Below, one piece after another: positions 44,776 to 48,221 of a DNA stretch of 64,000 nucleotides; position 1 is the stretch's first letter; each line of letters starts with the position of its first letter. A program made the translations under genes and the position numbers. The notes below the pieces were generated by a model. It saw only the letters and a list, made by a program, of their open reading frames with translations. It was not told the DNA's origin and made no database searches. Source of the DNA: Microthyrium microscopicum (taxonomy: Eukaryota); NCBI GenBank assembly GCA_010405405.1, contig MU004232.1, positions 949,481-1,013,480 on the forward strand. The letters run 5' to 3'.

Positions 44776-46529
44776 TAGTTAACCTCTTTAGGAAGCGATC
44801 AGTTCCAACGGAGTATTCCGAGGTAGCAGGAATTGAACTGCTAACGCTGCCCAGTAGAAAGAACCAACGGGTTTCACAGAAAGATATACTTCCCCAGCTC
44901 TTTCAATTACCAGTCTATAAGTCGATCAGTTCCAGCACGAGTTAGTCAATAATTGCAATGCACTTCGATCGCAATGCCAGTCTGAATCGGGAGCAGCCAA
45001 CTGCACTCCGAAGACAAAAAGGTGGGAGATGAGTTGAAGATCAAGCTGATCAAGCCGAGAATGGAATTCAGGGTCCAAACACCAGACCCAAAAGGCCCAA
45101 ACAAGGGGTCAGGGCGCACGACCGAGATTGCAGAAGTGCTCGCGGACTGGTGCTGGATGCGGCTCAGGGTCCACAGCTCAAATTGGTGTCGTCTGATTGG
45201 CAATGTCAAGAGTCTAGAAGCCGGGATCCGGGCCACGCAGAAGATTTGGAAACGTGATCGTCGCTTCTGCAATGTTTCCCGATATCGTCCGTGAATGTAT
45301 GATAATTGGTGGATAAGATGATAGCTGAGCCGGTCGGCGTACGGATACTGATGATATGCTGTCTCTGCACCTTCTGGCTTCAAATTTCTTATATATTGAC
45401 TGCAGTCTGGAAAGTCGAAAGTATGGTGATATGAAGAAGCATCGGTCTCAAAGTCAGAGGACCAAGTCTTATACCATCCCATCAAGGGAGCAGCTCAGAT
45501 GGGAATATGCCACATGCTCTCGTGCACGGTCAACATGTCACTTTCAAGAATCGAAGCTGATAGGGTGTGCACTGTGCAGACGTCAAAGAGCAAACGAGAC
45601 AAGGTGAAGTTGATATTGACGTCTGGTTCCAAACGCCAACAGTGCGCAGTGCACGGAGCATTGGCGACAGATCTTTGCGGGAGAGCGGCCTCTAAGAGTA
45701 ATAGTGCTCATAAGGCTGGTTAGCAGCGGCCTCATAAACTAGCGAGTTGAACATCGTGAAGTGGCGCGAGTGGATGAACTGGATTAGAGCGCAAAAGTGG
45801 GCCAAGGTTGAGAAAGGTTGAGCACGGGCTAAGGTTTGCATCCAGACTTTCTCGTCAACTGCATGCAAAAGAAAGGAGGAAATGGGATAAATTGCTGCAC
45901 AGGTCACACAAGAGACAGACGGTTCGTGAGTTCAAGAGATGTGACACAAGACCACGGGATCAGTTTGAGCCATGAAATTCGAGACATTGCGTCCTGTTTG
46001 CTGGTTATGTCAAAATCTGGGATGATGTAGTTTTGGGCACTTCTGCTTGAGTCAATAGTCAGTGCCTACGCGTATATCGAGATATTGAAGGTATGCTCGT
46101 TATATTGTGCATTAACTAACAGGTAACATAAGTAGACGAAAGGGCAATCCGACACAAAAAAGAGAAGACAAAAATCATCCTAAGCTCCGTAATTCCCCAC
46201 CCAAGAGGTCTATCGTAAAAGTGTACCTGGTTTAATACTTGCAGCATACAAAGCTCAAGTATATTAATCGCACCAGCCTTATCAGCCACGCGAAAACCAA
46301 GCTATGTAATTAATCAGTGTTGAGATTTGAAAGAAAACAGCACAAACTCCCCCAATCCAAGTAGCCGCGTGGTGTCCAGTCAGTGCCATCGTCTCTCTTG
46401 AACATGGGAAGCTCTGCCCTTTTCATCTCTTCACGAATAGCCGCGCCAGCTTGCAGAACATTGACATTGATGCCTACAGATCCATTTCCCCTAATCAGCC
46501 AAAGAACATCGGTCAAGTGATCGAGTCCT

Positions 46530-47520
46530 TTAGCAGCAGCCACTTCCGGATCCTTGATCCACGCGAGTTCCAGCACCAATGTTCACCTTCTCTTTGCCGC
46601 CCTGTTGTGTCGAGCTTCCCATACGCTCCTTGATCTGTCGAGCCATGGTCAAGAAAGCTTGCTCGACGTTTGATGCATTCTTGGCAGATGTCTCGAGGAA
46701 TGGTATTCCAAGGCTGTCAGCGAATTCCTACGGCGAAGATGTCAATCTATGGTTCCTGGGATTCTGGATGAGTAGCTATTTCTTACCTTTGCCGTAGTAT
46801 ACTCCACAACCTTCTTATCAGTCATATCAGACTTGTTGCCTACCAACAGCTTGTTGACGCCCTCGGTAGCATATCGATCAATTTCTTGCAACCACTGTTT
46901 GACGTTGTTGAAGGAATCCATATCTGTAACATCATAGACTACGCAGATGCCATGGGCACCACGATAGTAGGAAGAAGTGATAGTACGGAAGCGCTCTTGA
47001 CCGGCTGTGTCCCACTAATATGATCTTAGTAACCCAACTTATGGTAACATATAAGGTATAAACATACGATTTGTAGCTTGACAGTCTTTCCGTCTAGCTC
47101 AATCGTTCGGATTTTCTATTGTCGCATTGTTAGTGGCACTATCTACTGGAGCGATATAGGTCGGTTGCATGTAAAACATACAAAGTCAACGCCGATAGTG
47201 GAGATGTAACTCTCTGTGTAGGTATCGTCGGCGAATCGAAGGAGAAGGCATGATTTTCCAACACCAGAGTCACCGATGAGGAGGAGCTTGAAGAGGTAAT
47301 CGTATCTAGAGGGGTACGTCAGCTGAAAGCCGCAAGGTACGTTGGTGGCGGTGAAGATTATATCGTGCGGATAGTTGGCTTGAAGGTAAGAAGTACTCTG
47401 TTGAAGCTGTTAGCACAAGAAAGAATGCTGCGATAAACCATGGCCGCCTTGTAGAAGGCTGGCGATGCGGTAGGTGATGATTTAACGTTGGCATGGAGAT
47501 GCGTACCACTCTGGATTCAT
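46530..47520 (-). CDS. YPT1: Rab1/Ypt1 small GTPase (202 aa)
   Basis: Exons 47520-47510, 47305-47182, 47115-47068, 47014-46787, 46727-46530 total 609 nt; [42 protein letters not shown]-terminal GCC. Confidence 0.97.
47306..47509 (-). other. Predicted spliceosomal twin intron (stwintron), [D3,4] type, in YPT1
   Basis: GA|GTG[GTACGC...GCTAAC...CAACAG]AGT...GCTGAC...CTCTAG|ATAC; removing internal intron 47506-47398 creates a canonical GTGAGT donor. Confidence 0.85.
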
Positions 47521-48221
47521 GATGACGAAGCGTTTAGACGATAATTAGATGGATAGACAGCGGGCTTTGTGGAAAGAAGTGCAGGTAGCTGAGTCCTATG
47601 AATATGGACAGCGATGAGATGCGGATACCAGTAGAGAAACACAAGTGAAAGGTGTAGGAGAAAGTTTGGGACGTTGGAAGGGAACAGTGAAGGCCCCCAG
47701 TCAGTAGTTGAGGTCGTTCTACTTTGGGGTCCGGCGTTTGCTGAGTGTTGTGGTTGGCTACTCAAGCGCCCAGCCCGAGCGCGCTACTCAGCCTGAGTCA
47801 GCAGCATCTGAGCTATGTATCAAACAGTCTCATTGATCAGCTGCTGAGGCTGTCTTTCCCTGAAAATAGCGGTCATGTATGTATTGATCAGGTAAAGTTT
47901 CATAGGAGTTCAATTCTGGAAGCCAGATATGTAAGTAGAGCTATCCGCTGTACAGATCGGACTCCGCGCTCTCTACTCCCAGCGAATCTGCCATCACTCG
48001 CCCATCGAAAAGAGTTGAGATCCTGTTCAGTCACAAAACCCGCAATTACAACGCCTTACAAACATGCTCGAATATATCCCTTTGATCCCAGAGTCTATTA
48101 AAACTTTTAGGTCGTCCTCTATAGCTCGGCCGGGTGCCTAGCCTTGCCAGTCATTAACGCCGCCATTGATGTCTTGAAGAAAATGGAACCTCCTCTGGAG
48201 CCTTCGCTGCAGCCTAGTAGC

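Follow-up and report, generated by a model that had tools for sequence, protein, structure and literature searches.

A probable [D3,4] spliceosomal twin intron at the start of the YPT1/Rab1 gene of Microthyrium microscopicum

The first intervening sequence of the YPT1/Rab1 gene of Microthyrium microscopicum is very probably a donor-split spliceosomal twin intron (stwintron) of type [D3,4] that is excised in two steps. The gene lies in a 64,000-nucleotide stretch of genomic DNA (GenBank assembly GCA_010405405.1, contig MU004232.1, positions 949,481 to 1,013,480 of the forward strand)—the window of this study, the first letter of which is position 1 of all coordinates given below. The end product of the splicing process, i.e., the exact removal of 204 nt, is shown directly by an RNA contig; the order of events and the nature of the intermediate are those that the sequence and its conservation point to. 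Moreover, the comparison across loci indicates that the nested design is old and under selection; it has been kept in distantly related fungi with intron bodies that share no similarity.

In the route that we envisage, the nearest good splice sites would be paired in a first step—the donor GTACGC (47506) with the branch element GCTAAC and the acceptor CAG (47398)—with the loss of 109 nt. This reaction would bring GTG and AGT together as GTGAGT right after exon 1, and the new donor would then pair with GCTGAC and TAG in a second step, taking out a further 95 nt. The outcome would be the exon junction GA^ATAC, with the reading frame of the protein restored. Two features of ascomycete splicing agree with such an order: spliceosomes in these fungi pair the nearest sites across short introns, a mode known as intron definition, and RT-PCR has demonstrated, for other [D] types, an excision in two steps in which the smallest unit leaves ahead of the rest (PMC5639578, PMC7138796).

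The YPT1/Rab1 gene and its RNA

The gene is encoded on the minus strand and comprises five exons, with a coding span of 46530-47520 (Table 1). When joined and translated, these exons give a 202-residue protein that starts with MNPEYDYLFK and carries CC at its C-terminus. Exons 2, 4 and 5 matched Pfam Ras, and a comparison of exon 4 with solved structures returned Rab-1A as the best match (E 1.6e-41), followed by Rab-1B and yeast YPT1; the matches to Rab-10, Rab-35 and Rab-8 were far weaker, at about 1e-26. Judged by its predicted product—a Ras fold, nearest to Rab1 among the Rabs, ending in Cys-Cys—the gene is YPT1/Rab1.

Table 1. Position of the exons, introns and splice signals of the YPT1/Rab1 gene in the window, including the proposed units of the first intervening sequence.
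Feature	Position	Strand	Remarks
Exon 1, coding part	47510..47520	-	ATG at 47520-47518; 11 nt, ends in GA; RNA contig joins 47510 to 47305
Whole first intervening sequence, proposed [D3,4] stwintron	47306..47509	-	204 nt; begins GTGGTA, ends TAG; skipped exactly by the X1 contig
GTG, opening three letters of the split external donor	47507..47509	-	Sequence; GTG or GTA here in 7/7 loci
Internal intron (putative), 109 nt	47398..47506	-	Deduced from sequence and conservation
Internal donor GTACGC	47506-47501	-	Sequence
Internal branch element GCTAAC	47414-47409	-	12 nt before the end of the internal unit
Internal acceptor CAG	47400-47398	-	Sequence
External intron remainder, 92 nt (95 nt including GTG)	47306..47397	-	Sequence
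AGT completing the external donor	47397-47395	-	Sequence
External branch element GCTGAC	47323-47318	-	13 nt before the end of the external unit
External acceptor TAG	47308-47306	-	Sequence
Exon 2	47182..47305	-	Starts with ATAC; P-loop region; Pfam Ras, E 8.1e-13; RNA contig
Intron 2	47116..47181	-	66 nt, donor GTATGT; skipped in the X1 contig
Exon 3	47068..47115	-	Sequence and RNA contig
Intron 3	47015..47067	-	53 nt, donor GTATGT; skipped in the X1 contig
Exon 4	46787..47014	-	RNA contig; best solved relative Rab-1A, E 1.6e-41
Intron 4	46728..46786	-	59 nt, donor GTAAGA; skipped in the X1 and X2 contigs
Exon 5, coding part including the stop codon	46530..46727	-	RNA contig; Pfam Ras; protein end CC

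On the RNA side, the data consisted of assembled contigs from three small coded runs (X1-X3), none of which was recorded as RNA. A 5658-nt contig of run X1, aligned on 46000-48000, showed 0 differences from the window and skipped exactly 59, 53, 66 and 204 nt, all of them with GT..AG ends on the minus strand. Because all four introns are absent from it, this contig derives from RNA. It also contains the mature junction 47510^47305, which the preliminary description had named as a check on its proposal, with all 204 nt removed exactly. The intermediate junction 47507^47397 and the stop-bearing junction 47507^47305 were found in no contig; since assembled contigs drop rare forms, these two results count neither for nor against such products.

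Several further features of the RNA-side records were observed. The X1 RNA contig covers both gene flanks without a break, extending 2.8 kb and 1.2 kb past the 46000-48000 interval; transcripts of the neighbouring genes seem to overlap or to have been joined during assembly, and this contig thus does not reveal where the YPT1 mRNA begins and ends. Another RNA contig of the same run (record 2, 634 nt) matches the window only over the first part of exon 2 (47252-47305), where it shows 9 differences, and encodes a different N-terminus beyond 47305; the divergence sets in exactly at the exon-2 boundary, and the contig probably stems from the mRNA of a Rab paralogue. One contig in run X3, from a related organism, extends as far as 47305, and its loose end corresponds to the same exon 1 when read on the gene strand. 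A low-depth contig of that run (record 10), which covers 47510-47664, shows no difference from the window and breaks off where exon 1 ends; carry-over between runs seems a more plausible source than a relative.

With respect to the anatomy of the first intervening sequence, the coordinates and motifs put forward in the preliminary description—the units of 204, 109 and 95 nt, the branch points and the acceptors—are all exact in the sequence. Taking the unit criteria for stwintrons from PMC5587772, we found the internal unit of the window to be a complete U2 intron, with a donor, a branch element and an acceptor in 109 nt (the criterion being at least 42 nt), and the external unit to possess a branch element (GCTGAC) and an acceptor (TAG) of its own. 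Upon removal of the internal unit, GTG (47509-47507) meets AGT (47397-47395) and forms the GTGAGT donor of the 95-nt external unit, so that the internal unit separates letters 1-3 of the six-letter external donor from letters 4-6. Translation also bore out the earlier statement that both alternative products read MNPE-stop: this peptide results when the internal donor is joined to the distal acceptor, and again from the product left after step 1 alone. Each of these two readings, as well as the unspliced form, was rejected as a productive one in view of its early stop. Additionally, we considered the intron as a host for a small RNA or as the seat of a special fold, and discarded both options given that a search of Rfam yielded no match at E up to 1 and that the fold z-score was -1.3.

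Conservation of the splice signals and quality of the donors

A search with exon 4 against metagenome contigs returned 80 loci, six of which (L001, L002, L005, L006, L007 and L035) were counted as relatives—these being genomic, complete in the region and equipped with an intron ahead of an exon 2 beginning with ATAC. Left uncounted were L004, which shares the exon-2 start and is cut inside the intron, L003, where the region is missing, and the intronless L026. The latter is a Rab1-like gene with 79% identity in exon 4 and a different N-terminus, located on a 235-kb contig and carrying zero introns. Among the counted relatives, L035 displays 76% identity in exon 4, a different N-terminus and the same intron positions, and is likely orthologous by these measures.

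In the six relatives and in the window, exon 1 ends in GA and is followed by GTA or GTG, by a donor with G at +5, by a branch element and by YAG; directly behind this internal YAG stands AGT, with TGT in its place in L001. Removal of the internal unit rebuilds GTAAGT, GTGAGT or GTATGT in the seven loci. Under a fixed rule—a branch element whose end lies 4-40 nt ahead of HAG, with WGY following at once and with both units at least 42 nt long—each of the 7/7 loci that have the GA^ATAC junction contains one nested design and no more. This comparison follows the check on orthologues laid out in section 2.3 of PMC9024468. Intron 1 of related fungi had also been named at the outset as a place to look, and the GTR-GT...AG-WGT geometry proved to be kept in all seven loci. 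In L002 and L007, the branch element of the external unit falls outside the strict pattern, the nearest candidates being of the CTCAC type.

The bodies of these introns are unalignable across the seven loci, with 1 of 42 z-scores exceeding 2.5, and the DNA of exon 2 is 73-90% identical among them. No similarity was shared between the flanks of the window and those of the related loci; they are not close relatives. Taken at the level of sequence, the seven loci are well-separated lineages that keep the geometry of the splice signals and nothing else of the intron; being relatives, they do not represent seven separate origins. The other three intron positions are common to the window and the relatives.

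As controls, we examined eight Rab1 genes of other lineages (L010, L016, L017, L022, L028, L030, L041 and L073, with L016 and L017 close to each other). The nested design was found in none of their first introns (0/8; 2856 nt scanned), which open in a similar manner, with RTA or CTA ahead of GTRAGT or GTGCGT. In three of the control genes (L016, L017 and L073), an additional intron follows a few codons later, between LFKLL and LIGDSG; it is missing from the window and its fungal relatives. When the interior of the window intron was shuffled, the design arose in 159 of 5000 sequences (3.2%), and the rate lay between 1.2 and 4.7% when each locus was treated in the same way (5000 shuffles each). 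The product of these rates over the window and the six relatives is about 1e-11, a figure that assumes independence, yet the loci are relatives.

The quality of the donors follows a consistent pattern. Against the fungal donor consensus GURWGY (PMC7138796, PMC12403724), the outer donor GTGGTA of the window agrees at 3/6 positions and has T at +5, and the rebuilt GTGAGT agrees at 6/6—in line with the initial reading of the former as poor and of the latter as a consensus donor. The same holds for all seven loci, with outer donors at 3/6 and T at +5, internal donors at 4-6/6 and rebuilt external donors at 6/6. Introns 2-4 provide a reference within the same genes: G is present at +5 in 24/24 of their donors (window, L001-L007 and L035), and their lengths range from 50 to 110 nt in the window and the eight related loci. 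The first intervening sequences measure 163-261 nt, the size of two units of 50-110 nt. Some internal donors, namely GTACGC in the window and GTACGA in L001, conform to the consensus imperfectly. Donors of the GTACGT/GTACGA type serve ordinary introns within these same genes and are among the 24 counted above, so that the GTACGC of the window is of a kind that these fungi use.

Proposed two-step excision and its alternatives

The preliminary description had argued for ordered, inside-out splicing, and three lines of evidence now lend weight to this proposal: the mature junction in RNA, the contrast between a poor outer and a full rebuilt donor, and the occurrence of the nested design in 7/7 loci as opposed to 0/8 controls. 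The simplest alternative is that of one ordinary 204-nt intron, in which the weak GTGGTA pairs with the distal branch point and acceptor without any prior step, the internal motifs being incidental. The whole sequence starts with GT and ends with AG, and a single reaction would indeed give the observed mRNA; the intermediate is in no contig, although contigs are the only RNA-side material; and shuffling alone produced the design at the window rate given above. However, a donor at 3/6 without G at +5 would stand apart from the 24/24 other donors that have it, and a stronger donor placed only 3 nt downstream would compete with it, leading to a stop codon when joined to the distal acceptor. Furthermore, incidental motifs would not be expected to last in 7/7 diverged, unalignable introns and to be absent from 8/8 controls. 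We consequently regard a single ordinary intron as highly improbable. A related idea would retain the single reaction and shift its register instead: U1 would bind at the internal donor (47506) with cleavage 3 nt upstream, at 47509, releasing 204 nt at once. Such a mechanism would account for the good donor that always lies 3 nt inside, and recognition of a donor one base out of register does occur in other organisms. We know of no precedent for a shift of 3 nt, though, and the conserved internal branch element and acceptor followed by WGT in 7/7 loci would be left unexplained, which makes this scenario barely credible.

A different proposal concerns what the two-step pathway might do rather than whether it operates. 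The output of YPT1 could be tuned by a regulated switch between productive two-step excision and a single reaction that joins the internal donor to the distal acceptor, the latter giving a stop at codon 5. The unproductive product of the window does carry an in-frame stop, as it would by the same logic in all 7 loci, and low-level one-step missplicing has been reported for [D1,2] stwintrons (PMC9024468, PMC12403724). Yet the geometry by itself produces the stop—since GT plus A or G, followed by the first A of exon 2, reads TAA or TGA—and the conservation of this stop is therefore silent on regulation; the sole RNA contig, moreover, shows the productive form. As an addition to two-step splicing, we deem a switch of this type unlikely. 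On the other hand, excision of the [D3,4] stwintron in two steps need not be exclusive: one-step and two-step excision coexist for a [D6,7] stwintron of Lipomyces starkeyi (PMC7138796) and, by analogy, a minor one-step route may accompany the two-step route in YPT1.

An ancient intron position and the known classes of nested introns

The other-lineage Rab1 genes also shed light on where the stwintron may have come from. In 8/8 of them, one ordinary first intron sits after 14 coding letters, within a Tyr codon, and exon 2 begins with C or T followed by GAY. In the window and the six relatives, the mature junction falls after 11 letters, within a Glu codon, and exon 2 starts with ATAC. The internal donor (47506 in the window) is found after exactly 14 letters, i.e., at the ancient intron site and 3 nt downstream of the mature junction. 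The triplet that separates the two donors reads GTA at 4 of the loci and GTG at the other 3, which suits the purine at donor position +3 and no longer suits a Tyr codon. Because the control introns sit exactly at the internal donor, this arrangement suggests that the old Rab1 intron was converted into a [D3,4] stwintron, the junction moving by 3 nt; the old donor probably survives as the internal donor, the exon junction having slid 3 nt upstream.

Drawing these elements together, we lean slightly towards the following joint scenario. In an ancestor of these ascomycetes, the ancient Rab1 intron that is common to many eukaryotes would have turned into a [D3,4] stwintron, with the old donor kept as the internal donor. 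The letters G-T-A, once part of the exon as the end of the Glu codon and the start of the Tyr codon, would have become the head of a new external donor and exon 2 would have gained ATA, such that the junction slid by 3 nt and the protein stayed unchanged; two-step splicing would have been obligatory ever since for this essential trafficking GTPase, across widely diverged fungi. If true, the locus would illustrate in detail how an intron can slide in phase by way of a nested intron. The apparent 3-nt offset from the ancient Rab1 position represents a concrete and testable case for intron sliding.

The YPT1 case would extend the donor-split types beyond the published lists examined, and does so within an essential, highly expressed housekeeping gene. 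Its conservation across diverged fungi makes it a convenient model for the order in which splice sites are chosen under intron definition. The published types comprise [D1,2], [D2,3], [D4,5], [D5,6], [D6,7], [D7,8] and [A2,3] (PMC5639578, PMC7138796, PMC9024468, PMC12403724, PMC5587772, PMC6616335). Of these, the preliminary description had named [D1,2], [D2,3], [D5,6] and [A2,3]; these four are correct and the list was incomplete, as [D4,5], [D6,7] and [D7,8] are also in print (PMC7138796). The [D3,4] type is not among the types given in the examined text of the stwintron papers from 2017 to 2025, and literature searches on stwintrons or nested introns in YPT1 found no such case. Within the published lists examined, [D3,4] is the only donor-split position from 1 to 8 that is missing. 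The supplementary tables known to us list [D1,2] cases.

Nearly all described stwintrons are of the [D1,2] type, and the class as a whole is rare (PMC12403724). Annotation software misses [D1,2] stwintrons on account of their GG start (PMC9024468). A [D3,4] stwintron, with a GT start and an AG end, passes as a plain intron, and this may be the reason why the type has stayed undescribed; as such sequences are annotated as plain introns, cases of this kind may be under-counted.

The closest parallels are found among other donor-split stwintrons. In the [D2,3] stwintron of bioDA, known from Sordariomycetes and others, an internal U2 intron likewise splits the external donor, and bioDA shares with YPT1 an ancient intron position, retention across whole fungal classes and a needed gene product (PMC5639578). 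The two differ in that the bioDA split lies after the 2nd letter and the YPT1 split after the 3rd, and in that the former interrupts a biotin gene and the latter YPT1/Rab1; moreover, bioDA keeps the old intron position (PMC5639578), whereas the outer junction of YPT1 is 3 nt off it. The [D4,5] stwintron of a reticulon-like gene in Lipomyces lipofer and the [D5,6] stwintron of rtnA in Pezizomycotina resemble the YPT1 intron as donor-split, GT..AG sequences annotated as one plain intron (PMC7138796, PMC6616335). Their split positions differ from that of YPT1, with [D4,5] limited to one yeast genus, and their two-step excision has been shown by RT-PCR of the intermediate (PMC7138796, PMC6616335), whereas that of YPT1 is deduced from sequence and conservation. 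A further likeness exists to an alternative [D1,2]/[A2,3] stwintron tied to a 1-nt intron shift, where a nested intron also links two nearby positions in orthologues (PMC5587772); in YPT1, by contrast, the apparent shift is of 3 nt, the phase is kept and the nested form has been retained rather than resolved into one intron.

A final comparison relates the YPT1 intron to a mode of splicing outside the stwintrons. In recursive splicing at ratchet points, known from animals, a long intron is removed in consecutive reactions, with a donor rebuilt after the first; the first step acts on the donor of the upstream exon, and the new donor appears at the exon junction. Consecutive removal and a rebuilt donor are common to this process and to the route proposed for YPT1, where, in contrast, the outer donor would not be productive in the first step. 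A recursive splice site, i.e., a zero-length exon, was rejected for the window, as joining exon 1 (GA) to the AGTACT behind the internal acceptor leaves the junction without a GT and would break the frame. By the sequence of its nested units, YPT1 intron 1 would belong to a known class, that of the stwintrons, at a split position that is not in the published lists examined.
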